34,078 nucleotides of DNA from Candidatus Woesearchaeota archaeon (GCA_016180085.1 JACPBX010000008.1:1-34078), one strand, 5' to 3'. Counted from the stretch's first letter, positions 4,501 through 17,598 are shown. Numbers and translations are program-made. The notes: generated by a model from the letters alone, not told the origin.

Positions 4501-4548
4501 TTCTGAACAGCAATGTTTAAATTGGCTTTGAGTTTCTTGTTTGTTTAC

Positions 4549-4619
4549 GCGGCAGTGGTCCACCGGCACGACTCGACCTTCCCAAGGTCGCAAAGCGGGT
4601 TCAATTCCCGCCTGCCGCA
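4549..4619 (+). tRNA. tRNA-Gly(CCC)
   Basis: Acceptor GCGGCAG/CTGCCGC plus discriminator A, D-stem GTC/GAC, anticodon stem CGACC/GGTCG with loop TTCCCAA, T-arm GCGGG-TTCAATT-CCCGC; no encoded CCA; TATA-like GTTTAAA at 4515-4521. Confidence 0.93.
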
Positions 4620-4623
4620 TTAC

Positions 4624-5139
4624 ATGACTATACGTTTGGCAACAGCGAAAGACATTCCCAAATTAGCCCTCCTTGAGAGGAAAGCTTACGGGAAGCAAGG
4701 ATATAGTGAGCAGTTTATTTTAGGGAAGCAAAGGCACTTTCCTGATGGCCTGATAATCTCCGAGCACGAAAATAAGATAACTGGCTACATTCTTTACGAT
4801 TCTCTGGGTGAGCATGAGATTTCCCCGGATTTTCGCATTGTCAGCTTGAAAGAGCCGATTGAAGGCAGATGGATGCATATTGTTGCATTTACAACTGAGA
4901 CAAACTACAAGGATTTTGAGCATGATGCCAATCTTCTTCGCACAGCGGAAAAATCGGCAATTCTCAACGGCTGTAAGTTTGCTTATGTCCCTCTGCCAAA
5001 AGAGCACACATTTGATAAGCATGGTGCGCACCAGTTTTGGGAGCGCAACGGCTACCGGAAAATTGGGAGCATTCAGTGGCTGCCTGAGTCAGGGAAGCCT
5101 GTTGAATGTTATTTCTACAAAAAACAGCTGACAGGTTAA
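4624..5139 (+). CDS. GNAT family N-acetyltransferase
   Basis: MTIRLATAKDIPKLALLE start and AHQFWERNGYRKIG C-terminal GNAT motif; the ORF-track N-terminal extension overlaps the tRNA. Confidence 0.75.
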   Translation: MTIRLATAKDIPKLALLERKAYGKQGYSEQFILGKQRHFPDGLIISEHENKITGYILYDSLGEHEISPDFRIVSLKEPIEGRWMHIVAFTTETNYKDFEHDANLLRTAEKSAILNGCKFAYVPLPKEHTFDKHGAHQFWERNGYRKIGSIQWLPESGKPVECYFYKKQLTG

Positions 5140-5170: not shown

Positions 5171-5842
5171 ATGAAGCTATCACCGACAGAATTTGACAGA
5201 AAGCTGCGTGAAGGCAGGCTCCGCCTTTCAGTTGTAGGCATGTCCAACGTTGGCAAGACTAGGCGGGCAAAGAGCCTCGTTGCCGACCAGAGCCTGAACT
5301 TTGTGTGGCTGCACGGCGATGACCTCGTTGAGGCAAAGCTGCAGCCTTACCTTGAAGGCAAAGGATTTAAGGGTGTCAACGGAGTTGCTGCATGGATGGG
5401 CCAGCCTTATGAAGCCCGCTATCCCGAAACCCAAAAGCTGTTTCTTCAGTTTGAGGAGTCAGCAATGGCTGAGATTGTCTTTTCCGTTGGCAAGAACATT
5501 GTCGTTGACACTACAGGGAGCGTTATTTACCTTCCACAGAATGTGCTGCAGCGGCTGAAGGAGAGCACCCTTATAGTTTACCTTGAAGCCACAGAGGATG
5601 TTAAAAAACTGCTTTTCGAGCGCTATATCTCCAATCCAAAGCCTGTTATCTGGGGTGGCAGCTTTAGCCGCAAACATGGTGAATCAGACCTTGACGCGCT
5701 TAGGCGCTGCTATCCGCAACTGCTGGAATACAGGGCTGTAAGATACAGGAAGCTTGCCGACATCACCATCCCGCATAATGTTCTTCGCGACACTTCCGGC
5801 AGGCAGTTCCTGAATGAGATTAAGAAGCGGCTTCCGCAGTAG
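5171..5842 (+). CDS. P-loop kinase of the shikimate/gluconate kinase-like fold
   Basis: Walker A GMSNVGKT, HGDDLVE, VVDTTGSVIY, IVYLEA, RAVRYRKLADITI. Confidence 0.7.
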   Translation: MKLSPTEFDRKLREGRLRLSVVGMSNVGKTRRAKSLVADQSLNFVWLHGDDLVEAKLQPYLEGKGFKGVNGVAAWMGQPYEARYPETQKLFLQFEESAMAEIVFSVGKNIVVDTTGSVIYLPQNVLQRLKESTLIVYLEATEDVKKLLFERYISNPKPVIWGGSFSRKHGESDLDALRRCYPQLLEYRAVRYRKLADITIPHNVLRDTSGRQFLNEIKKRLPQ

Positions 5843-5852
5843 TTTTCCGATT

Positions 5853-5903
5853 CCCAAGTCGCGTTTGACGCGACTGGGCCCAGTCGGCTGCTGCCGACTC
5901 GGG
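5853..5903. repeat. 51-nt double-hairpin element, intergenic copy
   Basis: CCC-A-AGTCGCG-TTTGA-CGCGACT-GGG joined to CCC-AGTCGGC-TGCT-GCCGACT-C-GGG; central perfect palindrome CGACTGGGCCCAGTCG at 5871-5886. Confidence 0.8.
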
Positions 5904-5966
5904 GACTGCTTTACCAAAGGGGTCACCCTAGTAAACTTTTTAATCCAGCCATTTTCCCACCGTTAC

Positions 5967-6707
5967 ATGCTGAACATTAGGGAAATTGTAATAAAAATAG
6001 CTGACATCCGTGCATATTCGGAAAACCTCAGGGTTTTCAGGCTCACGCTTCCTGAAGGCAGCGGCTTTTCATTTGTTCCCGGCCAGTTTGTGATGGTTTC
6101 GCTTCCAGGCTTTGCTGCCGCGAATGGCAGGAAAATAGCCAAGTCATACTCAATAGCATCCTCGCCTTCCGAGACGGGAATTCTGGAGCTTTGCATAGCC
6201 CTCTATCCCTCGGGCGCCCTCTCTCCGAAACTGTTCCAGAAAAATGTCGGTGATGAGGTTGTTGTGACAGGGCCTTACGGCGTATTTCAGCTCAAGCAGT
6301 CTATCCAGTCGGGAACTGTTTTTATGGCCGGGGGCACAGGTCTCGCCCCTTTGATGAGTATGCTTCGTTCGCTCTACGCAGGAGGCTACAACGAAAAGCT
6401 CTGGCTTTTTTACAGTGCCAGCGAGCCAAAGCTGTTTTTGTTCAAGGAAGAGCTTTTGGGCTATCAAAAAAACAACAATCTGCAGCTTATTGCTTCAACC
6501 AGCAGGCCGGACAATACCTGGGAATGGGAAAAGGGCAGGGTGACAGACACGTTCCCAAGCTTTCTGCATCAGTTGCAAGGCGATGGCGTCCCAAGCGAGT
6601 CAAGGCAGTTCTACATCTGCGGCCCTCCGCTGATGGTTTCTGACACGGTTAAGATGCTTGAGCAGATCGGCTTCAAAAAGGAGAACATCCACAAGGAGCA
6701 ATGGTAA
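5967..6707 (+). CDS. FAD/NAD(P)H-dependent ferredoxin-NADP+ reductase family oxidoreductase
   Basis: FVPGQFV, KSYSIASSP, GALSPKL, GPYG, AGGTGLAP and FYICGPPLM motifs. Confidence 0.9.
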   Translation: MLNIREIVIKIADIRAYSENLRVFRLTLPEGSGFSFVPGQFVMVSLPGFAAANGRKIAKSYSIASSPSETGILELCIALYPSGALSPKLFQKNVGDEVVVTGPYGVFQLKQSIQSGTVFMAGGTGLAPLMSMLRSLYAGGYNEKLWLFYSASEPKLFLFKEELLGYQKNNNLQLIASTSRPDNTWEWEKGRVTDTFPSFLHQLQGDGVPSESRQFYICGPPLMVSDTVKMLEQIGFKKENIHKEQW

Positions 6708-7355: not shown

Positions 7356-9740
7356 TCACTTTATGGAGTGCCCGCCGAACTGCTCCCTGAGCCCCGAGAG
7401 GACTTTTCCAGTGTAAGTTTTGCTGTTTTTCTCCGACCACTTCCTGAACTGCATGGCCCCCTCAATGATTTTTGCCTTGGCCTTGAGTTCCTTTGCTGTT
7501 TTGACTGTCCAGGCCCCTTCTCCCGTGTGGCCAACCTTGCCCGAAACTCCCTTTAGGTCTTCTCCGTGAAGCTCAAAAGCCGCCTTGAGCCAGCCGGCGA
7601 GCCTTGACTCTATGACGCTGCCGTGGTTGTAAATGTCCGCAACCCTTTTCAGGTCAAGCCTGTAACCTGACTTTTTCAGAATCTCAAAGCCTTCTGCCAG
7701 GGCCTGCATCATGCCGTACTCAATTCCGTTGTGCACCATCTTCACAAAGTGGCCTGCCCCTGCTCCCTGGAAGAACTGCACGCCGTTTGTGGCGGCGTAA
7801 TCAACTAGCAGGGGCAGCAGGTATTCATAGTCCTTTTTCTCACCGCCAACCATGAGGCATGCCCCTCGCCTTGAACCTCCCGGCCCTCCTGACACGCCAA
7901 CATCCGCAAACCTTATCCCTCTCCTGGTCAGCTCATTGTGCCTCCTTGCCGAGTCCTTGTAGTATGAGTTTCCGCCGTCAACTATTATGTCACCCTTCTG
8001 CAGACAGTGGACAAGGCCATTGTGCTCCATTGTACCGAATATCATTTCGTCTACCGGATTTCCTGCGGGCAGCATGAGCCAGATTATTCTTGGATGTTTT
8101 AGCTTGCCCACAAGTTCCTGCAGCGAGTAAGCTCCTTTAAGGCCGTGCTTTTCAAACTCCTTGGTTTTCTCTGCTGTCCTGTTGTAGGCCACAACCTTCC
8201 AGTCCTTTTCGTGCATCCTTAGCGCCATGTTGCCGCCCATCCTGCCAAGCCCGATTATGCCAAGTTCTTTGGCGAATCCCGGCCGCACAGACTCTTCTTC
8301 TATTCTTGCCGACATCCTTGAGGCGTAGTCAGTATCTGGCATGTACGTCCTCAGCGGCACAGCGTTATTCTTCCATGCATATACATAGGGGTCAATGAAT
8401 TTCCACATGGCATTTACTTCCTCACTGCTTATGAAGAGGGTCTGGTCTCCTACGATGCAATCCAGAAGGAGCCTTTCATACTCTTCAACGTACTGTACCC
8501 GGTTCTCTGCTTCCCTGTAAAGCATCTTCAAAGCTCTTTTGTCTATTTCTGACGTGAGGCCTGGCTTTTTGAGCCAGAAATGGACAGTTATGGCCTCCAC
8601 CGGCTCCAGGCTGAACACGACCTCACTGTGGTAGTGCTTGGCGGCTGTTGGCTGGCACAGGCATGGCGCCGGGTGCTTTAGCACAACAACTATCTCTTTC
8701 TTGGGCTCTCCCATTCTTTTGCCGCTTTCCATTATTATTGGGACGCCCTGCCACCTTTCATTGTCAATGTACGCCCTGATTTTGAAGTAGGTCTCAGTTT
8801 GCGATTCTGGCGCTACACCATTAATTTTCCTGTAGCCGTCGTACTGTGCCCTGAAGGAGTTGTTCCTGATTTCCTCCTCAGCCGGTATTTTCAGTGCCTT
8901 CAGCACCCTTGCCCTTTGCGTCCTTATGGCGTTCGGCTCCAGCTTAACAGGATGGTCCATGGCAGCAAGCGCAAGCATCTGCAGCAGGTGGTTCTGGCCT
9001 ACATCCCTGAGGCAGCCTATGCTGTCGTAAAAGCTTCCTCTGTCATCAACGCCCAGCTCCTCAAACACCCTGATATGTATTCGCTCTATGAACTGGTTGT
9101 TCCAGCTCTGCTCGAAAAGGCTGTTGGAGAACCTGAAAGAGAGTATGTTTTGCAGCATGTCCTTGCCCAGGTAGTGGTCTATCCTGTAGATTTGCTCTTC
9201 CTTGAACAGCTTGCCCAGCAGTAGGTCCAGTTCTTCAGCTGTCTTGAGGTCCTTGCCAAAGGGCTTCTCAACCATTACCCGTGTCCAGCCCTCTTCCGGC
9301 CCGCATCCTTTTGTCAGGCCTGAGGCTGCCAGGTTATTGAATATGTTCTTGTAGAACTCCGGGGCAACTGCAAGGTAGAACAGCTTGTTGGTGCACACTC
9401 CCCACTGCGAATCTATCTGCCCAATTTTCTTAGCCAGGCTCTTGTATGTGGTTTTTTTGTCAAAAAGCCCCTTGTGGTAGGAGAAGAGCTGCAGGAAAGG
9501 CTTCAGCTCAGGGTCGGCCTTTGTTGTGTCCTTGTGCTGGCTGAGGAATTCCGCAACCATTCTCCTGAAGTCTTTGTCAGAGTAGTCACGCCTGGAAACC
9601 CCCACTACCCTGAACATCCTTGGCAGCATGCGCTTCTTGTGGAGGTGGAACAGGGCAGGCACTATTTTCCTGGCCATCAAGTCGCCTGTTGCGCCGAATA
9701 TTACTACTGTTGACGGAATGTTCTGTTTCGGGCTGAGCAT
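7356..9740 (-). CDS. zwf-gnd: Fused glucose-6-phosphate dehydrogenase / decarboxylating 6-phosphogluconate dehydrogenase (short type)
   Basis: N-terminal GATGDL, EKPFG, RIDHYLGKD, RDVGQNH; C-terminal GIIGLGRMG, DGGNS, GVSGG, KMVHNGIEYG; one uninterrupted 794-aa ORF. Confidence 0.93.
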   Translation of the reverse strand: MLSPKQNIPSTVVIFGATGDLMARKIVPALFHLHKKRMLPRMFRVVGVSRRDYSDKDFRRMVAEFLSQHKDTTKADPELKPFLQLFSYHKGLFDKKTTYKSLAKKIGQIDSQWGVCTNKLFYLAVAPEFYKNIFNNLAASGLTKGCGPEEGWTRVMVEKPFGKDLKTAEELDLLLGKLFKEEQIYRIDHYLGKDMLQNILSFRFSNSLFEQSWNNQFIERIHIRVFEELGVDDRGSFYDSIGCLRDVGQNHLLQMLALAAMDHPVKLEPNAIRTQRARVLKALKIPAEEEIRNNSFRAQYDGYRKINGVAPESQTETYFKIRAYIDNERWQGVPIIMESGKRMGEPKKEIVVVLKHPAPCLCQPTAAKHYHSEVVFSLEPVEAITVHFWLKKPGLTSEIDKRALKMLYREAENRVQYVEEYERLLLDCIVGDQTLFISSEEVNAMWKFIDPYVYAWKNNAVPLRTYMPDTDYASRMSARIEEESVRPGFAKELGIIGLGRMGGNMALRMHEKDWKVVAYNRTAEKTKEFEKHGLKGAYSLQELVGKLKHPRIIWLMLPAGNPVDEMIFGTMEHNGLVHCLQKGDIIVDGGNSYYKDSARRHNELTRRGIRFADVGVSGGPGGSRRGACLMVGGEKKDYEYLLPLLVDYAATNGVQFFQGAGAGHFVKMVHNGIEYGMMQALAEGFEILKKSGYRLDLKRVADIYNHGSVIESRLAGWLKAAFELHGEDLKGVSGKVGHTGEGAWTVKTAKELKAKAKIIEGAMQFRKWSEKNSKTYTGKVLSGLREQFGGHSIK

Positions 9741-9925: not shown

Positions 9926-10318
9926 TTAATAGCGCTCAATCCTCAGGCCCTTTACTCTTGAGAAGTGTTTGATATTCCGTGTCAGGACTGTTTCGTTTTC
10001 CAGCAAAGCGGTTGCGGCTATCATTGCGTCAATGTTGTCTATGCCCTGGCCTCCCTTTGCAAGTGTTCCATGAATCTCCCCTGCTTTTTCAGCCATAGGC
10101 GCTGTCAGGGCAATCGTGCTTATCCCTGACAGGGCTCTCATGACTTTAAGCCTTTCTTCCTCGCTTTTTTTTGAATGGCCTACGCCCGACCACAACTCAA
10201 ATATTGCTGCACTGCTCACCCGATACGTTTCACTTTTTTCCACAAGCTTCCTGTGCCTATTTAGCGCGCCTTCATCCATCTCCATAAGATCAATTATGAA
10301 GCTAGTATCCAGTATCAT
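9926..10318 (-). CDS. vapC: VapC PIN-domain toxin
   Basis: ILDTSFIID, FELWSG, DAMIAATAL and LTRNIKHF PIN motifs. Confidence 0.93.
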   Translation of the reverse strand: MILDTSFIIDLMEMDEGALNRHRKLVEKSETYRVSSAAIFELWSGVGHSKKSEEERLKVMRALSGISTIALTAPMAEKAGEIHGTLAKGGQGIDNIDAMIAATALLENETVLTRNIKHFSRVKGLRIERY

Positions 10319-10548
10319 TCAAATCTGGCCCACGTCTTTTTTATTCTTTCTTCTGTAGTCGCCCTTGAAGATTTGAGGTGCGCCCTCATGTCATCCGCTT
10401 CCTTTTTTGTCAAAAGTCCAACTAGCTCTGCTAGCGGGTCTTTATTTGTTATGCGCATTATGGCATCTGTGAAGCTCTCGTCTTCACTTTTTGTGCTTTT
10501 TAGGCGGTTATACGCATTCTCTGTAATTGTTATCGTTTTGACAGCCAT
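10315..10548 (-). CDS. vapB: VapB antitoxin, archaeal DUF217/UPF0330 type
   Basis: KTITITENAYNRLKSTKSEDESFTDAIMRI; overlaps the vapC start by 4 nt. Confidence 0.88.
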   Translation of the reverse strand: MAVKTITITENAYNRLKSTKSEDESFTDAIMRITNKDPLAELVGLLTKKEADDMRAHLKSSRATTEERIKKTWARFE

Positions 10549-10558
10549 AATTAAACAC

Positions 10559-10576
10559 ATATAAGTGCACTTATAT
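10559..10576. promoter_or_regulatory. Perfect 18-bp palindrome overlapping the vapB TATA box (probable antitoxin operator)
   Basis: ATATAAGTGCACTTATAT, 10 nt upstream of the vapB ATG, overlapping TTTATATAA on the minus strand. Confidence 0.7.
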
Positions 10577-10645
10577 AAACATTTCGGTTTATGCATGAGT
10601 TTGTTCAAGAAACATTTAAGTAACGGAAGCTTTTCCGGCAGCATA

Positions 10646-11227
10646 ATGGCCGATTATGAAGTCCGTGTTGACAGGAAAAAATGCATCGGAGCCGGCTTTT
10701 GCGAAAAGCTAGTGCCGAGGATGTTTAAGGTTGATGCCAAAAATAGGGCCACACTAAATAATGGCGTTGTTGTGGGCGATGAAGCCGTCGCCTTGACAGT
10801 GGGCGATACCGACCTCAAAGACAGCGTAATGGCTGCTAAGGTCTGCCCTTCTTATGCCATTTCAGTAGCCAATAAGGCAACGGGCGAAAACATGCTCGAC
10901 ATTGAGCCTGAGATGCACATTCCGGTGAAGATGATTGATGCCCATTACGACAGCATGAAGGAATGGTCTATGGACCCTCTCGGCTTTTTCACAATAAAGC
11001 CGTTTCCTGACGAAGGCTTAATCAGAGTCAGGTACTACAATGCCAAACACCAGCTTGCAGCAGAAATAGAGGGCAAAACTGCAGAGGAGCTTTACAACAC
11101 CATCTGCCGTGAGGGACTAGTCTCAGGCTTATCTCATGCAGCTTACTTGGGCAGCGAACTCCAGAAAGCTGAAATTGCCATTAAGAAGCGCCTGCTTTAC
11201 GTGCAGGATGACCCTCTAAAGATTTAG
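10646..11227 (+). CDS. Ferredoxin (single cluster, CxxAxxC...CP) fused to a DUF4346 domain
   Basis: CIGAGFC...VCPSYAI at the N-terminus; MDPLGFF, EGKTAEEL and SHAAYLGSELQKAEIA...YVQD at the C-terminus. Confidence 0.8.
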   Translation: MADYEVRVDRKKCIGAGFCEKLVPRMFKVDAKNRATLNNGVVVGDEAVALTVGDTDLKDSVMAAKVCPSYAISVANKATGENMLDIEPEMHIPVKMIDAHYDSMKEWSMDPLGFFTIKPFPDEGLIRVRYYNAKHQLAAEIEGKTAEELYNTICREGLVSGLSHAAYLGSELQKAEIAIKKRLLYVQDDPLKI

Positions 11228-12144
11228 CCCAATTTTCTTATGTACTGGCCAAGAGTTTTTGCTGACCTGTGCAGCAATGCCTGTTCCTGCTTGTTAAGCG
11301 TTAGTTCTATAGTTCGTTCTATCCCTTTCCTGTTAATGACACATGGTATGCTCAGGCATACGTTGTTAACGCCGTAATAGTTGCTTACCAAGGTCGATAC
11401 AGGGAACACGTCGTTTCTGTCTGTAAGTATCGCTTTTACCACCTGCGTTATTGCAAGCCCTATTGCGTAGTAGGTTGCGCCTTTCTTTGCTATAACCTCA
11501 TACGCGGACTCTTTTGTTTTCCTAAATATCTGCTGCAGTGCCTTGGCGCTGTATTCAGGGAATTCCCTCAGCGGCTTCCCTGAGATGTTTGCCGTGCTCC
11601 ATACTGGAAATTCTGTATCGCCGTGCTCCCCAAGCACAAACGCATGGACGTGCTGCGGGCTGACTTTGAACCTGTGGCTTAGCCAGTACCTGAGCCTTGC
11701 CGTGTCAAGCAGCGTGCCTGAGCCTATGACCCTTCTTTTTGGGAAGCGCGAGTACTTTAGCGCGAGGTATGTTAAGATGTCAACGGGGTTTGTCACTATC
11801 AGAAGTATGCAGTCAGGGCTGTTCTTTGCTATCTTCGGGATTATTTCCCTGAAAATCCTGGCGTTCTTCTCAACAAGGTCAAGCCTTGTTTCGCCTTTGC
11901 CCTGGTGCAGGCCTGCGCACACTATTACTATGTCAGCCCCTTTGCAAAGGCCGTAATTGTTCCCAAAGGTTATTTTGGTTGTGTTTACGAACTGCAGGCC
12001 GTGCTTCAGGTCCAAAGCCTCGCCTTCTGCCCTTTGCCTGTTTATGTCTGTCAGTGCAATCTCAGTAGCCAGGCCTTCAATCATCAGCGCATAGGCTGCT
12101 GTTGCCCCTACAAACCCCGCTCCCACAATTGCAATTTTTGGCAT
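11224..12144 (-). CDS. ldh: L-lactate dehydrogenase
   Basis: GAGFVG, NPVD, SGTLLDTAR, GEHGD; specificity loop AGLHQGKGETRLDL has Q (LDH) rather than R (MDH). Confidence 0.88.
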   Translation of the reverse strand: MPKIAIVGAGFVGATAAYALMIEGLATEIALTDINRQRAEGEALDLKHGLQFVNTTKITFGNNYGLCKGADIVIVCAGLHQGKGETRLDLVEKNARIFREIIPKIAKNSPDCILLIVTNPVDILTYLALKYSRFPKRRVIGSGTLLDTARLRYWLSHRFKVSPQHVHAFVLGEHGDTEFPVWSTANISGKPLREFPEYSAKALQQIFRKTKESAYEVIAKKGATYYAIGLAITQVVKAILTDRNDVFPVSTLVSNYYGVNNVCLSIPCVINRKGIERTIELTLNKQEQALLHRSAKTLGQYIRKLG

Positions 12145-12147
12145 AAG

Positions 12148-12573
12148 TTACCCTGTGCTCCCGAACCCGCCTCTCGTTTTCCCCATTTTGTCAGTTTCTT
12201 CCCATTCAAACCTGTCCACTTTCACAAATATTCCCTGCGCTACCCTTTCGCCTTTCTCAACTTTAACAACTTTATCTGTGTTGTTATAGACCTGCACTTT
12301 TACCTCATCGCCTTCTCCGCAGTAGTCGTTGTCAATTACGCCTATGCCGTGGGGCTTAATCAGCCCTTTCTTTCTTGGCGTAGAGCTTCGCAGCGCAACC
12401 AGCAGCATATATCCTTGCGGCGTTTCAACAATAATGTTTCCTGGAATAAGTGCAATCTCGCGCGGCTTTATCTCCATGTCCTCCCTAGAATAAATGTCAA
12501 ACCCCACCGAGCCGGAAGTCTGGTAAGTCGGCAGAGGCAGTGACTTGTCTACGCGCTTTATTTTGACTTTCAT
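12148..12573 (-). CDS. dut: Trimeric dUTP diphosphatase
   Basis: GSVGFD, RSS, GVIDNDY, ERVAQG and RGGFGSTG motifs. Confidence 0.95.
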   Translation of the reverse strand: MKVKIKRVDKSLPLPTYQTSGSVGFDIYSREDMEIKPREIALIPGNIIVETPQGYMLLVALRSSTPRKKGLIKPHGIGVIDNDYCGEGDEVKVQVYNNTDKVVKVEKGERVAQGIFVKVDRFEWEETDKMGKTRGGFGSTG

Positions 12574-12582
12574 TGTAGTACC

Positions 12583-13029
12583 CTATTTCTTAATCAGCTT
12601 CTTCAGCTCTTTCTCGAAGCTTTCCAGGTCGGCGAACTGCCTGTAGACCGAAGCGAACCTTATGTAAGCGACTTTGTCGAGCTTCTTCAGTTTTCTCATA
12701 ACCAGTTCGCCAACGTGGCTGCTGCTTACCTCTTTCTTTTCTTCGTTTCGCAGCTCGGCCTCTATCTCATCAACTGCATGGTCTATCTTTTCCTGCGGTA
12801 TGGGTCTTTTCTCGCAGGCTTTCGTCATGCCGTTTCTGAGCTTCTCGCGGTTAAAGGGCTCCCTTCTCCCGTCCTTTTTCACAACTACGAGGTCAAAGGG
12901 CTCAATCCTTTCGTAAGTCGTAAACCTTTTTTTGCAGCGAAGGCACTCTCTCCTGCGCCGCGTTGCCTCGTTTGCTTCGCGTTTGTCAACTACCTTGTGA
13001 TCCTCGTTGCCGCAGTAGGGACAGTTCAT
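12583..13029 (-). CDS. nrdR: Transcriptional repressor NrdR
   Basis: [26 protein letters not shown]-cone, and [16 protein letters not shown]. Confidence 0.97.
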
Positions 13030-13074
13030 TGCAACCGTAGGAATGCTTCGCAGCTGTTTTTAAATGTTGCTGCA

Positions 13075-13641
13075 TCAAATTGGCAGCTCTGATTTCAGCT
13101 TCGATATTAATGCTTCAGTTTCCAGGCTCCTGTTTTCTACTACCCAGCTGTATAGCAGTGGGCTCAGCGTCACGGAGAATGCAAGGTTTCCTGCCAGATG
13201 CAGGAGAGTGAATGGTATTTGTCCTGTCACTGCCTGCACGAATGGCTGTGCGAAAAAGAGAGGGCCTATTGTCAGGCCTGTGGCAGCATCGTAAGCCAGA
13301 GTCCCTAATACAGAAAATATTGCATAGTTTTTGACAGAGCTTTTTCTGCTTTTGAAAAACCATGCGGCGCCAATCCCAACTGCCCCGTAGGCAGCCGCTG
13401 TTATCAATGTCCAGATTCCAGCCTTTTTGGTGAATAAGTCGAACAAAGTTATGCTGAGGAAGCCAAAAGCAAACCCTCCCAAGTAGCCGAATTTTTTGCT
13501 GAAAGGCATGTTTGCGGTCATCACAGGCTCAATATTCGGCGGCCTGAATGGTATTAGCCTTATTGCGAAGCATGCAACAAAACCTATAACGTATTTTGCC
13601 AAATTATTTTTGGCGAGTGTAATTTCCTTCATCTTTTCCAA
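13075..13641 (-). CDS. ECF-type S-component, probably cobalamin-specific (CbrT/BtuM-like)
   Basis: About six TM helices with RLIPFRPPNIEP near the N-terminus and a C-terminal IPFTLLHLAGN; specificity inferred from adjacency to pduO and nrdJ. Confidence 0.65.
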   Translation of the reverse strand: MEKMKEITLAKNNLAKYVIGFVACFAIRLIPFRPPNIEPVMTANMPFSKKFGYLGGFAFGFLSITLFDLFTKKAGIWTLITAAAYGAVGIGAAWFFKSRKSSVKNYAIFSVLGTLAYDAATGLTIGPLFFAQPFVQAVTGQIPFTLLHLAGNLAFSVTLSPLLYSWVVENRSLETEALISKLKSELPI

Positions 13642-14174
13642 TACTCGTAGTTTGGCTTTTCTTCCGTAATGCTCCTTCTTCTGTTCTCAACCCTTGCCAT
13701 TATGTGGAGCAGCGATGACAGCCTGTTGGCGTACTTAAGCAGCAGCGGGTTAACCTCCGCGGATTTTGCCAATCTTACCAGCTGCCTTTCAGCCCTTCTT
13801 GAGACAGTCCTGGAGAGGTGGAGCAGGGCTGCCTCTTTGCTTCCTCCCGGCAGCAGGAAGGAGTGTTGGGGCTCCACAAACCTTTCGCATTCCGCGATTA
13901 TTTTTTCAATCCTTTCAACGTGCTTTTCTGTTATTTTCGGAACAGTTTCCACCGCAGCTCCAAGCTCTGCGCATATTGTGTGAATATCATCCTGCGCAGA
14001 CTTCAAAATTCTAACTGTATCATCAGAGCCGGCAAAAGCCCCCACAACGCCAATCACAGAATTAAGCTCGTCATAAGTGCCAAGGGCTTCTATCCTATCA
14101 TCATCCTTCTCTACGCCTGTTTTCCCAAGCAAGCACGTCGTTCCATTGTCTCCTTTGCCAGTGTACAATGCCAT
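13629..14174 (-). CDS. pduO: ATP:cob(I)alamin adenosyltransferase, PduO type
   Basis: YTGKGDNGTT, ALGTYDELNSVIG, LHLSRTVSRRAER and NRLSSLLH motifs. Confidence 0.95.
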   Translation of the reverse strand: MALYTGKGDNGTTCLLGKTGVEKDDDRIEALGTYDELNSVIGVVGAFAGSDDTVRILKSAQDDIHTICAELGAAVETVPKITEKHVERIEKIIAECERFVEPQHSFLLPGGSKEAALLHLSRTVSRRAERQLVRLAKSAEVNPLLLKYANRLSSLLHIMARVENRRRSITEEKPNYEYWKR

Positions 14175-14189
14175 TTTTGGTTTTAGCTG

Positions 14190-14306
14190 TCATGTGCAGA
14201 TTCCCCAGCCGCATTCCTCGTTCTTGCAGCTGAAGCATGTGCCGTCATCCGTGTCTTCCTTTTCCACCGGGCCGCCGCAGTTAGGGCATTTCGTTATTTC
14301 GTTCAT
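14190..14306 (-). CDS. 38-aa Cys-rich Zn-ribbon microprotein (below the ORF-track size limit)
   Basis: Manual translation MNEITKCPNCGGPVEKEDTDDGTCFSCKNEECGWGICT; fits between nrdJ and pduO with 15-nt gaps on each side. Confidence 0.75.
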   Translation of the reverse strand: MNEITKCPNCGGPVEKEDTDDGTCFSCKNEECGWGICT

Positions 14307-14321
14307 TTTTTCCTGCTAATG

Positions 14322-17300
14322 TCATACTTCGCACTTGCTGAAGCCGCACGTTTCGTTAAGGCAGCTGTGGCAGCCGTTTTCGATTTTCAGCGTTTTATTG
14401 CTGCACGATGGGCATATGCTCAGCTTCATGTCAGAGGCTGTTATCTCTGTGCTGTTTTTGCCGTGCCCCTGCCTTGCTTCCGCGGCTGCTGCAGTCTCCA
14501 AGCCTGCAGCTGCTTTTGTGAAGACATACCTTCCTCCGTCTTTTTTAATCTGGCCGTTCTTCGCAGCGCTGTAGACTGTTGTCAGCCTTCCATCTGGCAG
14601 GGCTATCACATCATCTCCCCTCATGAGCCTTTGTTCGCCATCAACCTCAACATCATACTGCTCTTCCGCTGCTTTTTGGAACTCTGATTTCTGCGTGCCA
14701 GTGCTCAGTATCGGGTAGCGGGAGCCTTCCCTGTAGATGGTTATGCCCTTGAGGCCGTTCTTCCACGCGTCAAGGTAGATGTTTGATATGGTCTCAGGGT
14801 CAATGTCCTCAGGCAGGTTTACTGTTGATGATATGCTGTGGTCAACATATTTCTGCCATAGGCCCTGAGTCATTACCCTCTTGCCCGGGTCGATGAAATG
14901 TGCTGTCCTGAAGAAATGGGCGGGCAGTATGCGCTTCAGCTCATCAGCATCCTTGCATTTTTGCGCTTCTTCAGCCAGGTTGTGCTGCTGGATGTACGCA
15001 TCCACAGTCGAATGAAATATCTTGAAGAACATGTTGCTTCCTCCGGAACTCAGGCCCTCAGACCTCCTGGTGTAGTAAAGCGCGAATACAGGCTCTATGC
15101 CCCCGCTGACACCTATGAAATTCCTGTCACCAAGCTTGTAGCCGAGCACTATGTTGGATATTGTCCCTGTTGGCGCTATTGAAAGGATTGCGATGTTCCT
15201 GAGCCCTTTCTTCCTTATGAGTTCCTTTGTTTCGTCTGTAAGCACTTCCTGGAAGAAGTTTCCCTTGCTGTAGGCCTGATACTCGAATATCGGCGATGGC
15301 GATTTCTCCTCTGCCAGGCTTGCTGATGCCTGGTAAGCAGTATTCGAGAACAGTTTGGCAGACTCTTCGAGTATCTTTACGCCTTCCTCGCTGTCATAGC
15401 CAATGCCAAGCTGGTTAAGCATGTCTGCTATGCCCATAACACCCAATCCAACTCTTCTGGTTTCGTAAGCTGCCTTTCGCTGCTTTTCAAGCGGGTTCAG
15501 GAGCTCATTCCACGTAACCACGTTGTCCAAAAATCTCACTGCAAGCGCGGTTGTTTCCTTGATGCCGCCCCAGTCTATCTCTGCCTTGTCTGTGTAGCCG
15601 CTTTTGACAAACCTCGACAAATTGACAGATGCCAGGTTGCATGCCCCGCCGTCCTCAAGAGGAACCTCGGCGCAAGGGTTCGTGCTCGCTATTGGCCTCC
15701 CAACATAGTTGGATGGCGAGTACTTGCTCATTGTAGACCAGAATATGAGCCCTGGCTCGGCTGTCCTGTAGTTGCCTTCTATAAAGGCGTTCCAGATGGT
15801 TCTTGCCTTAACCATCCTCTTTATCTCGTTAGTCTCGCGCGAATTGTAATAAAGCATGAAGTCTCCTGCTTGCTTTATTGCAAGGTCAAACTCAGAGCCC
15901 CTGTCAGGAACGACAATGTCGCCAAACATGTCCCTCCTTCCAGCGTCAGCCAGGTCCCTTCCGCTTAACGGTCCTGCGCCGTGCTCTGACAGGAACCTGT
16001 TAAGCTCTTGCAGCGTGTCAAATGTTTTCAGCAGCCTGTATTTTTCTATCGGCTTCGATGGTATGCCGTATGAGTAGTGCACTGCCCCGCCTTGCATTAT
16101 TCCAAGTCCGGATACTGCCTTGTCTTTCAGATAAACAAGGAGCTTTTCAGTGCCATACCTATTCTGCTCATCAACCGCCTGCATGAACTCGTCTGATATC
16201 TTCAGGCTTATGTTGGCGAACCTCACCTGCGTGTTCTCCCTCACCTGCCGTTCTATTTCCCTGAGCTGCTTCTCATTGAACTGGTTCGACCACTTGCACT
16301 GCTCGACTATCTGGTTCGTCACCCAGTTCGGCATCTTCTTCACGTTTATGAAGTGCTGGCTGTCAGGGTGCTTTATGTCAATGGTGAGCATGAGGGCTCC
16401 CCTTCTTCCTGACTGCCCGATCAGCCCCGTGGTTAACGAGAAAAGCTCCATGAAGGAGACGCTTCCTGTTGAGGTATCGGCCGCGTTGTGAACTACTGAG
16501 CCTTTCGGCCTTAGCACAGATATGTCCACCCCAATCCCGCCGCCATAAGAATAAGTCCTGGCGCATTCGTAAGCAGACTGGTAGATTGACTCTATGTTGT
16601 CCTCTGCTATGAGCGAAACAAAGCAGTTGGCAAGTGTCTTTAGCCTGTATAAATCTCCCCCACCGGCAATCACTCTCCCTCCCGGCACAAAATAGCCCTC
16701 GTACAGCGCCCTGTAGAACCGTGCTGCCCATTCCTGCTGCTTTTCAGGCGTTGACTCAACAGCCGCCATAAAAGCTGCAAGCCTTGAAAACGCATCCTCA
16801 GGCCTTTTCTCAATCAGCTTGTTGCTAAGGTCCTTCAGGAAATATTTCTTCTGGTAGATGCTTGTTGCCAGCTCATTCGCATTAAGGTAGTCTCCTGGGT
16901 GAACAGGCATTTCCCCTTTCTTTTGCAGGTCTTTCAGGTAGAACAAAAGGTTCTTGTAAGCCTCAATCCTGTCATACCCTATAATTGATGCAAGCTTGCT
17001 CTTGTGGGCGAACATGTCAAGCAGCGCTGTCTTCTCACCATCGCTGCCCTTTGCAGCCTCAGCGGCCGCCTGCCTTAGTTCGGCCCTCTTTGCCCTGTAA
17101 AGTATGTACGCCTTCGCTGTCTTGGCATGGCCTTCCTCTATGAGTATCTTTTCAACAGCATCCTGGACCTCTTCCACTGTTGGTATCTTCTCGTTTTTTG
17201 ACACAAAATCAACGACAAGCCCTGACAGCCTATCTGCCTCTTTCCTGTCGCTTCCGCCAACAGACCTTGCAGCCTTCATGATGGCAGAGGTTATTTTTTC

Positions 17301-17396
17301 ATCGTCAAAGTTAACAACCCTTCCATCGCGCTTGACTATCTTGGGAATCCTGCTGACGGACATGGCTTTCCCTGCATCGAAGGCTTTTGGTGTCAT
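14322..17396 (-). CDS. nrdJ: Class II (adenosylcobalamin-dependent) ribonucleotide reductase with N-terminal ATP cone and C-terminal Zn ribbon
   Basis: IVKRDGR ATP cone, PGGRV, ANCFV, GGGIG, RRGA, TNPCAE, CNLAS, APTGTIS, KGITIYREGSR; no NrdB in the window; pduO adjacent. Confidence 0.93.
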   Translation of the reverse strand: MTPKAFDAGKAMSVSRIPKIVKRDGRVVNFDDEKITSAIMKAARSVGGSDRKEADRLSGLVVDFVSKNEKIPTVEEVQDAVEKILIEEGHAKTAKAYILYRAKRAELRQAAAEAAKGSDGEKTALLDMFAHKSKLASIIGYDRIEAYKNLLFYLKDLQKKGEMPVHPGDYLNANELATSIYQKKYFLKDLSNKLIEKRPEDAFSRLAAFMAAVESTPEKQQEWAARFYRALYEGYFVPGGRVIAGGGDLYRLKTLANCFVSLIAEDNIESIYQSAYECARTYSYGGGIGVDISVLRPKGSVVHNAADTSTGSVSFMELFSLTTGLIGQSGRRGALMLTIDIKHPDSQHFINVKKMPNWVTNQIVEQCKWSNQFNEKQLREIERQVRENTQVRFANISLKISDEFMQAVDEQNRYGTEKLLVYLKDKAVSGLGIMQGGAVHYSYGIPSKPIEKYRLLKTFDTLQELNRFLSEHGAGPLSGRDLADAGRRDMFGDIVVPDRGSEFDLAIKQAGDFMLYYNSRETNEIKRMVKARTIWNAFIEGNYRTAEPGLIFWSTMSKYSPSNYVGRPIASTNPCAEVPLEDGGACNLASVNLSRFVKSGYTDKAEIDWGGIKETTALAVRFLDNVVTWNELLNPLEKQRKAAYETRRVGLGVMGIADMLNQLGIGYDSEEGVKILEESAKLFSNTAYQASASLAEEKSPSPIFEYQAYSKGNFFQEVLTDETKELIRKKGLRNIAILSIAPTGTISNIVLGYKLGDRNFIGVSGGIEPVFALYYTRRSEGLSSGGSNMFFKIFHSTVDAYIQQHNLAEEAQKCKDADELKRILPAHFFRTAHFIDPGKRVMTQGLWQKYVDHSISSTVNLPEDIDPETISNIYLDAWKNGLKGITIYREGSRYPILSTGTQKSEFQKAAEEQYDVEVDGEQRLMRGDDVIALPDGRLTTVYSAAKNGQIKKDGGRYVFTKAAAGLETAAAAEARQGHGKNSTEITASDMKLSICPSCSNKTLKIENGCHSCLNETCGFSKCEV

Positions 17397-17416
17397 GTTT
17401 CATTACCTCACAATAA

Positions 17417-17432
17417 ATACAACCTGTTGTGT
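17417..17432. promoter_or_regulatory. NrdR box, proximal
   Basis: ATACAACCTGTTGTGT versus consensus acaCwAtATaTwGwgt; core ACAAC-CT-GTTGT is palindromic. Confidence 0.65.
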
Positions 17433-17449
17433 TTCTCTCCCGTCTAGAA

Positions 17450-17465
17450 CCCCAATATGTTGTGG
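17450..17465. promoter_or_regulatory. NrdR box, distal
   Basis: CCCCAATATGTTGTGG matches all capitalised consensus positions; 33 bp centre-to-centre from the proximal box. Confidence 0.78.
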
Positions 17466-17476
17466 TTTCTGGATTT

Positions 17477-17494
17477 ACTTGTATTTAAAGGTTT
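17477..17494 (-). promoter_or_regulatory. BRE/TATA promoter of the nrdJ operon
   Basis: Minus strand AAACCTTTAAATACAAGT; identical 18-mer at 26727-26744. Confidence 0.7.
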
Positions 17495-17598
17495 TTGTGC
17501 CAAAAACTATATTAGCCATAACTCATGACAGAATTTCTAGCTGCTGGTGATGTAAATTCAAAAGCATCAATCGCAGTTGGTATAAGTTTTATATAAAA

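Follow-up and report, generated by a model that had tools for sequence, protein, structure and literature searches.

We describe here an operon of a Candidatus Woesearchaeota archaeon that could make deoxyribonucleoside triphosphates (dNTPs) with scavenged vitamin B12 under the control of the repressor NrdR, a reading to which we give a probability of about two in three. The operon lies on the minus strand, at positions 11224-17396 of a stretch of 34,078 nucleotides (GCA_016180085.1 JACPBX010000008.1:1-34078), called the window in the following. It consists of seven co-oriented open reading frames (ORFs), namely nrdJ, a Zn-ribbon ORF, pduO, the gene of a six-helix membrane protein of the S-component class, nrdR, dut and ldh, with gaps of 15, 15, -4, 45, 9 and 3 nucleotides (nt) in this order. 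All these ORFs, which a preliminary description of the window had proposed as seven co-oriented genes with gaps of at most 45 nt, are present. In the proposed mechanism, the S-component, which resembles the cobalamin carrier CbrT, would bind a complete cobamide on the external side of the membrane and carry it inward without the ATPase module of energy-coupling factor (ECF) transporters. PduO would adenosylate the cobamide, which would also trap it inside the cell, and NrdJ would use the adenosylcobalamin (AdoCbl) for ribonucleotide reduction. The 38-residue Zn-ribbon protein would probably help to re-reduce NrdJ, as is thought for the look-alike tail of NrdJ, the dUTPase would remove dUTP and supply dUMP, and NrdR, at high dATP, would occupy two boxes located immediately behind the TATA box and so shut the promoter. 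The importer gene appears to be a recent insertion into an older nrdJ-znr-pduO-nrdR-dut operon, in which it separates pduO from nrdR. From sequence and context we infer both the substrate of the S-component and its motor-less transport: it is most likely a motor-less B12 importer.

The enzymes of the operon are readily identified. The nrdJ gene (14322-17396) encodes a class II, i.e. AdoCbl-dependent, ribonucleotide reductase (RNR) of 1024 residues that matches TIGR02504 (502.4 bits, cut-off 399.95), PF03477, PF00317 and PF02867, with an ATP-cone at the N-terminus, barrel domains, and a CxxC...CxxC zinc-ribbon tail at the C-terminus. The product of pduO (13629-14174, 181 residues) is a PduO-type ATP:cob(I)alamin adenosyltransferase (TIGR00636, 169.9 bits for a cut-off of 108.45; PF01923, 160 bits for a cut-off of 24). 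The S-component gene (13075-13632, 185 codons), assigned from fold and a remote profile match as a candidate solitary cobalamin importer of CbrT type, has its most likely start codon in the ATG at 13632, shared in part (ATGA) with the TGA stop of pduO; the listed TTG at 13641 is less likely. A 45-nt spacer (13030-13074) separates it from nrdR (12583-13029), which encodes an ATP/dATP-sensing repressor of RNR genes of 148 residues, made of a Zn ribbon and an ATP-cone (TIGR00244, 195.5 bits, cut-off 124.65). The dut gene (12148-12573) specifies a trimeric dUTPase of 141 residues (TIGR00576, 117 bits, cut-off 102.55), and ldh (11224-12144) an L-lactate dehydrogenase of 306 residues (TIGR01771, 389 bits, cut-off 303.55). 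The Zn-ribbon micro-ORF between nrdJ and pduO (14190-14306, 38 residues, CPNC...CFSC) was recognized from its translation and is without match in the curated family search. The genome that holds the window (designated G000, other genomes and loci being given G and L numbers) is an assembly of 998,598 bp in 45 contigs, 82.8% complete. No rRNA is assembled in it, and the TATA-binding protein (TBP) was used for placement instead: G000 encodes a tandem TBP repeat and, elsewhere in the genome, an archaeal helicase domain, which bears out the archaeal host assumed earlier.

A search of 5.8 billion proteins returned 373 relatives of the S-component, and those with a named source are almost all from Patescibacteria (Candidate Phyla Radiation, CPR), with 50-65% identity to the window protein. 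The names of ESM Atlas clusters for relatives, 'MreD' and 'QueT', were taken as unannotated and not informative. PF07155 is passed marginally by the window protein (29 bits, cut-off 26.7) and is matched by 41 of 42 family members; the word riboflavin in the name of PF07155 is no evidence for the substrate. No NCBIfam name was obtained for the protein. PF20221 (DUF6580) is weakly touched by six of the 42 members, the window protein remaining below it. The alignment of these 42 proteins has 29 invariant positions, including R25, R30, N33, E35, D65, W74, Y82, D115, Q138 and H145, and contains no invariant or nearly invariant cysteine. In the predicted topology, conserved residues would fall in the loop that follows helix 1, ahead of helix 4 and at the beginning of the last helix, the places where S-components bind their substrate. 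The AlphaFold (AF2) model has a pLDDT of 90.9 and a pTM of 0.84. Its 14 best structural matches among 48,161 PDB representatives are all S-components (Z 9.1-13.3, 149-170 residues aligned), and the S-components matched include FolT (Z 13.3), RibU (Z 12.0), ThiT, PanT, BioY, NikM and CbiM. The top 19 Foldseek matches are also S-components, yet every E-value exceeds 0.03. The fold thus establishes the class of the protein and not its substrate. At the sequence level, the profile of the 42 members matches a single S-component among 177,635 PDB sequences, CbrT of Lactobacillus delbrueckii (6fnp_A, E 0.0034), with the motifs R..(P)..PN[VI][EQ]P, G[IV]WTL and F.L.H..GN.AF in common. CbrT had been predicted from the nrdJ-cbrS-cbrT-pduO cluster of L. 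delbrueckii and was later shown to transport cobalamin and cobinamide (PMC5997447). Searched as a single sequence against the PDB, the window protein matched only 4hzu_S (E 0.15) and not CbrT, and BtuM, the other B12 carrier considered in the preliminary description, was matched in the PDB neither by the single sequence nor by the profile. The family appears nearer to CbrT than to BtuM. The comparison with CbrT and BtuM by profile and structure, suggested at the outset, thus gave a clear S-component fold and CbrT (6FNP) as the one profile match in the PDB.

The genomic context of the relatives in CPR bacteria also points to B12. In GTDB, taken with one genome per species, 328 stretches encode a relative, and the following counts are from the best 80 of the 328, all from CPR except two records labelled otherwise. 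The S-component gene is beside nrdJ in 48 of the 80 loci, with two types of NrdJ and with the S-component on either side: a CPR-type NrdJ of 760 residues is directly adjacent in 45 (42 downstream and 3 upstream of the S-component), and a different type lies upstream in three. In 32 loci pduO follows nrdJ. The non-homologous adenosyltransferase CobA (PF02572) is found in nine, and the eight that are clustered occupy the slot behind nrdJ otherwise held by pduO; since one enzyme is swapped for the other in the same slot, the conserved theme is corrinoid activation. Genes for DUF4430 or DUF4430-plus-toroid (transcobalamin-like) proteins occur further downstream in 21 loci. No conserved ABC or EcfT gene is among the recurrent neighbours in these CPR loci. 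In a second set of 80 metagenome contigs, at least 30 loci encode the S-component with nrdJ and pduO, and 39 have at least one B12-related neighbour despite the short contigs; seven loci pair the S-component with DUF4430/transcobalamin-like genes without nrdJ. At the scale of whole genomes, CPR-type NrdJ, counted by search with the protein itself because PF02867 misses it, is present in 37 of 50 CPR carriers and PduO in 36, and nine of the 14 without PduO have CobA, so that PduO or CobA is encoded in 45 of the 50 (the count covers carriers only). EcfT/CbiQ is over the cut-off in none of the 50, by a search that was positive in 11 of 14 control genomes. Many of these carriers (e.g. G402, G404, G409) possess two large RNR genes: the 760-residue NrdJ lies beside the S-component gene, and the second ORF, of about 860-900 residues with a strong PF02867 match, lies away from it. 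The S-component genes not beside nrdJ (e.g. L015, L023, L075, L125, L132, L164, L166) very often have tRNA genes within 100-300 nt, and these flanks may be integration hot spots or simply tRNA-rich regions.

Riboswitches were searched with Rfam at gathering scores in about 42 loci with family members. In two of them a cobalamin riboswitch directly precedes a monocistronic S-component gene: RF01482 in L081 (50.1 bits, 5778-5909, gene at about 5986-6519) and RF00174 in L122 (37.1 bits, 1349-1472, gene at 1558-2106). Neither has an nrd gene nearby. Non-cobalamin classes, among them those for flavin mononucleotide (FMN), tetrahydrofolate (THF), thiamine pyrophosphate (TPP) and preQ1, were absent from the roughly 42 loci. 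The riboswitches next to family members are therefore cobalamin ones only and give no sign of the affinity to carriers of another vitamin that the preliminary description had raised as a counter-argument. Most of these loci are without any riboswitch, among them nine operons of S-component and nrdJ and some loci in which a long gap precedes the gene. AdoCbl-II riboswitches (RF01689) were also observed. The one in L039 (7553-7645) lies within the operon, after pduO and before the next downstream gene, and its position would therefore split the operon into an unregulated part for import, use and activation and a B12-regulated part. The one in L070 (9614-9730) is on the strand opposite to the S-component gene, some 3 kb downstream of it.

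In the 82.8% complete assembly of G000 itself, we found no EcfT/CbiQ, FecCD/BtuC, CobS, CbiB, CobA or DUF4430 protein and no B12-binding domain PF02310, and neither NrdD nor a class I beta subunit. NrdJ is the sole RNR and the sole B12 enzyme detected in G000, and no plausible way in for B12 was seen other than the S-component. The earlier statement that the window contains no ECF ATPase or B12 biosynthesis gene can be extended to the whole assembly for EcfT/CbiQ, BtuC, CobS, CbiB and CobA, ABC ATPases not having been searched as such. Because EcfT was found neither in the 50 CPR carriers nor in G000, the S-component probably works alone. A second, very remote S-component-like ORF (G000, contig 37, 8004-8573; L210 4005-4574) lies beside the prolyl-tRNA synthetase gene proS; it reaches 25 bits with PF12822, below the cut-off, and its context is uninformative.

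The S-component gene appears to be a newcomer in this operon. All six archaeal relatives of the same family have the order nrdJ-(znr)-pduO-nrdR-dut, with dut after nrdR in each, and have neither an S-component gene nor ldh in the fetched regions. In a DNA alignment with G367, of the same genus, both flanks align, and pduO and nrdR, about 20 nt apart in G367, are separated in the window by the S-component ORF and the 45-nt spacer that came in with it. By parsimony, its absence from the six relatives and this clean indel point to a recent insertion, and the gene would not be an ancestral part of the archaeal operon. NrdR is 96% and PduO 66% identical between the window and G367. A horizontal transfer of PduO together with the S-component, suspected from these values, was rejected, PduO being the fastest-evolving protein of the operon (40-48% identity across relatives, versus 61-79% for the other genes). 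The metagenome contig L211, of a related archaeon, carries pduO (74% identical), the S-component gene (76%) and nrdR (96%) in the same order as the window, PduO and the S-component are neighbours on the P0007 contig, and L207 and L208 show the order nrdR-S-component. Elsewhere in the phylum, a clear homologue (45-50% identical) is encoded in seven of 400 other genomes, mostly not beside nrd genes; three of the seven have NrdJ and CobA, and an NrdJ-like gene of a fourth falls slightly short of the cut-off. G244 came up in this survey as a weak hit only and supports no claim made here. The synteny expected across DPANN archaea is thus patchy, and it recurs in the contigs just cited and in the nrdJ, pduO, cobA and DUF4430 neighbours of CPR bacteria. 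In a quick tree with weak support, the seven archaeal homologues form a separate group and the window clade is placed next to CPR sequences, and a transfer between CPR and DPANN, in one direction or the other, is likely. The ldh gene, counted as part of the unit in the preliminary description, is not a conserved member. The idea that import, activation and use of B12 are encoded in one module is supported by the gene identities, the link to CbrT and the genomic context, and has to be amended in that ldh is outside the unit and the S-component is a recent addition. The Zn-ribbon micro-ORF is kept in the same slot in L201 of the same genus (6164-6277, 66% identical) and, more weakly, in L205. 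It aligns to the C-termini of the NrdJ proteins of the relatives and looks like a free-standing copy of the NrdJ tail, and may serve class II RNR as a separate redox-shuttle peptide. NrdJ of relatives (L201 7677-8110; L203 7896-9064; L204 8071-9227) contains an in-frame insertion at the position of window residue 575, of about 144 residues in G367 and about 390 in G166 and G120, which is probably an intein and is absent from the window nrdJ.

The promoter region suggests how the operon could be controlled. A putative TATA box, TTTAAATA, is located at 17482-17489, about 95 nt upstream of the nrdJ start, and is followed on the same strand by two predicted NrdR boxes, CCACAACATATTGGGG at 17450-17465 (box 1) and ACACAACAGGTTGTAT at 17417-17432 (box 2, with the palindromic core ACAAC..GTTGT). 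Each box agrees at 12 of 16 positions with the bacterial consensus, which reportedly goes back to Rodionov and Gelfand (2005). The boxes are 33 nt apart from centre to centre, and box 1 would be at the expected transcription start, about 25 nt after the TATA box. Upstream of nrdJ in L201, L202, L203, L204 and L206, TTTAAATA is found at the same distance from two NrdR boxes. Box 1 is identical in L201, of the same genus, matches at 13-14 of 16 positions in L202 and L203 and is kept in L206, with diverging flanks; box 2 is conserved in L201, L202, L203 and L206. Tandem NrdR boxes before an RNR gene, with nrdR in the same operon, make a plausible operator. With these boxes and the short gaps, the most likely arrangement would be one NrdR-repressed transcript from nrdJ to dut, which probably extends to ldh. 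A TATA-like sequence, ATTTAAAAA, is present in the 45-nt spacer, about 30 nt before the ATG of nrdR, and the spacer is absent from G367; a promoter role for it is speculation.

Several observations weigh against the reading of this operon as a B12-scavenging unit. The link to CbrT is remote, with 20.5 bits over 135 positions, and in the structural comparison FolT and RibU (Z 12-13.3) outscore BtuM (8ovv_A, Z 7.1) and CbrT (Z 6.6), whose chain is modelled only in part. The sole Pfam match, PF07155, is a riboflavin S-component family. Riboswitch control concerns just two of about 42 loci, one of the two exactly at the gathering threshold, and in the window Rfam finds a tRNA alone. PduO is encoded in none of the seven other archaeal carriers, versus 102 of 401 genomes of the phylum, and three of the seven (G314, G165, G152) have neither NrdJ nor PduO or CobA. 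Among these three, G165 alone has clear B12-binding-domain proteins, those of G152 and G314 being below the threshold. In G314 (L113, 3061-7673) the S-component gene heads the row S-component-nrdR-nrdD-nrdG, i.e. next to the B12-independent class III RNR, a row that also holds a kinase-like AAA gene. This could mean that the S-component imports another dNTP-related substrate (a nucleoside, nucleobase, deoxynucleoside or other vitamin), travels in the NrdR regulon and neighbours pduO only through nrdJ. The adjacency of S-component and nrdR genes in three different gene orders, and the presence of dut near the gene in two CPR loci, would suit such a substrate. We nevertheless consider it improbable, because the two homologues behind cobalamin riboswitches are monocistronic and the seven metagenome loci with transcobalamin-like genes lack nrdJ, and because the substitution of cobA for pduO in the same slot makes corrinoid activation the common denominator. 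A corrinoid adenosyltransferase is present in 45 of the 50 CPR carriers. Among proteins of solved structure, CbrT alone is related to the family at the sequence level, and no FMN, THF, TPP or preQ1 riboswitch accompanies the family.

A second group of objections concerns the solitary status, which relies on absence in incomplete metagenome-assembled genomes, though this absence is consistent (0 of 50). Unassembled ECF or btu genes are possible in G000 at its level of completeness, and the EcfT search did not target ABC ATPases as such. A CbiQ/EcfT-family gene exists in three of the seven archaeal carriers, in G110 at 3 kb from cobA. CbrT of L. delbrueckii needs its ECF module, and solitary CbrT did not support B12-dependent growth in Escherichia coli (PMC5997447). 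The protein could thus be a B12 S-component that docks on an energising module which is unassembled, too divergent to be detected or of a new kind. We regard this as unlikely, in view of the control genomes in which the same EcfT search was positive, the lack of a recurrent ABC or EcfT neighbour, and the precedents of BtuM and solitary BioY, S-components that can work alone (PMC6072759, PMC11109136). The protein might also not be an importer at all and handle or sense B12 in the membrane, e.g. as a decyanase or a chaperone in the delivery of B12 to PduO, or as a receptor with the S-component fold. BtuM has decyanase chemistry (PMC6072759), sensor kinases and MreD have the same fold (PMC11109136; structural match of the model to MreD, Z 7.4), and translational coupling to pduO would be appropriate for a hand-over partner. 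The family protein has no cytoplasmic domain and no invariant cysteine, its conserved residues would be located where S-components bind substrate, and G000 offers no other candidate route for B12 entry, which makes a non-transport function very improbable.

The proposed importer bears on the B12 supply of ultra-small, host-dependent archaea and of CPR bacteria, in which B12 serves the only route to DNA precursors, and a single-gene importer without motor would explain the continued dependence of such cells on their neighbours for DNA synthesis. It is tempting to go further and to propose that this CbrT-related family is the main B12 entry route of CPR bacteria and some DPANN archaea, that it moves between the two domains as a single-gene plug-in to an NrdR-controlled nrdJ-pduO operon, and that uptake is driven only by adenosylation and capture; we hold this broader proposal tentatively, at somewhat below even odds. 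If it is true, the family would add to BtuM a second and independent kind of B12 importer that works without ATP, and would be the first candidate for B12 import in DPANN archaea. In the literature collection searched, no paper linked CbrT-like proteins to CPR or DPANN. The new points here are the insertion of the S-component gene, the conserved TATA box with two NrdR boxes, the non-conservation of ldh and the archaeal instance. The insertion next to pduO, seen in G000 and not in its sister genome of the same genus, is a natural before-and-after pair, and the promoter would show a repressor of bacterial type at work in an archaeal setting. The protein, if it is such an importer, would also be a small and easily expressed object for work on ATP-independent transport by S-components.

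Other features of the window lie outside the operon. A toxin-antitoxin pair, VapB (PF02697) and VapC/PIN (PF01850), is encoded on the minus strand at 9926-10644, about 580 nt downstream of ldh, and is not in the fetched regions of the six relatives. At 7356-9740, also on the minus strand, a fusion of 794 residues joins glucose-6-phosphate dehydrogenase (PF00479/PF02781) and 6-phosphogluconate dehydrogenase (PF03446/PF00393), an arrangement unusual for a DPANN archaeon, in which a single polypeptide makes up the oxidative pentose-phosphate module. The tRNA gene on the plus strand (4549-4619, 53 bits with Rfam) lies inside a mechanically called ORF (4513-5139) that is probably spurious.

The operon can finally be compared with known systems. 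For L. delbrueckii, ECF-CbrT and its nrdJ-cbrS-cbrT-pduO cluster are associated with Santos et al. (2018, PMC5997447) and, reportedly, with the work of Rodionov in 2009. The window operon is a coherent variant of this design of nrdJ, S-component and pduO, which is on record since 2009 and 2018. As in ECF-CbrT, a six-helix S-component is encoded with a class II RNR and PduO in a B12 auxotroph, and the CPR operons carry DUF4430-type genes that are, by analogy, comparable to cbrS. Unlike ECF-CbrT, which requires EcfAA'T, the family comes without EcfT in G000 and the 50 CPR carriers, and the host is archaeal, control would be exerted through NrdR boxes, no DUF4430 gene was found in G000, and the similarity is remote. 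The window protein is therefore CbrT-like and not a CbrT member in the functional sense. BtuM of Thiobacillus denitrificans (6FFV/8OVV) occurs in genomes that lack an ECF module and is proposed to import B12 without such a module (Rempel et al. 2018, PMC6072759), and the present family likewise occurs in genomes without a detected ECF module. In contrast to BtuM, which is proteobacterial, it has no counterpart of the cobalt-binding cysteine (the invariant His145 being present), no sequence match to BtuM, and a structural score to it well below that to FolT. DUF6580 (PF20221) proteins of CPR and archaea form a separate family at the Pfam level; G367 encodes such an S-component-like protein, with the similar motif signature P[SN]VEP ... 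H.GSN.AF, outside its nrd operon, and G000 has no orthologue of it. The predicted operator is like that of the bacterial NrdR regulon in having two palindrome-like boxes of 16 bp, spaced by about three helical turns, before an RNR gene, with nrdR in the operon, and differs from it in that the boxes lie behind an archaeal TATA box and not a sigma-70 promoter. What sets the window operon apart is thus its archaeal host, control by NrdR boxes, the recent acquisition of a single gene, and an S-component remotely related to CbrT that apparently needs no partner module.

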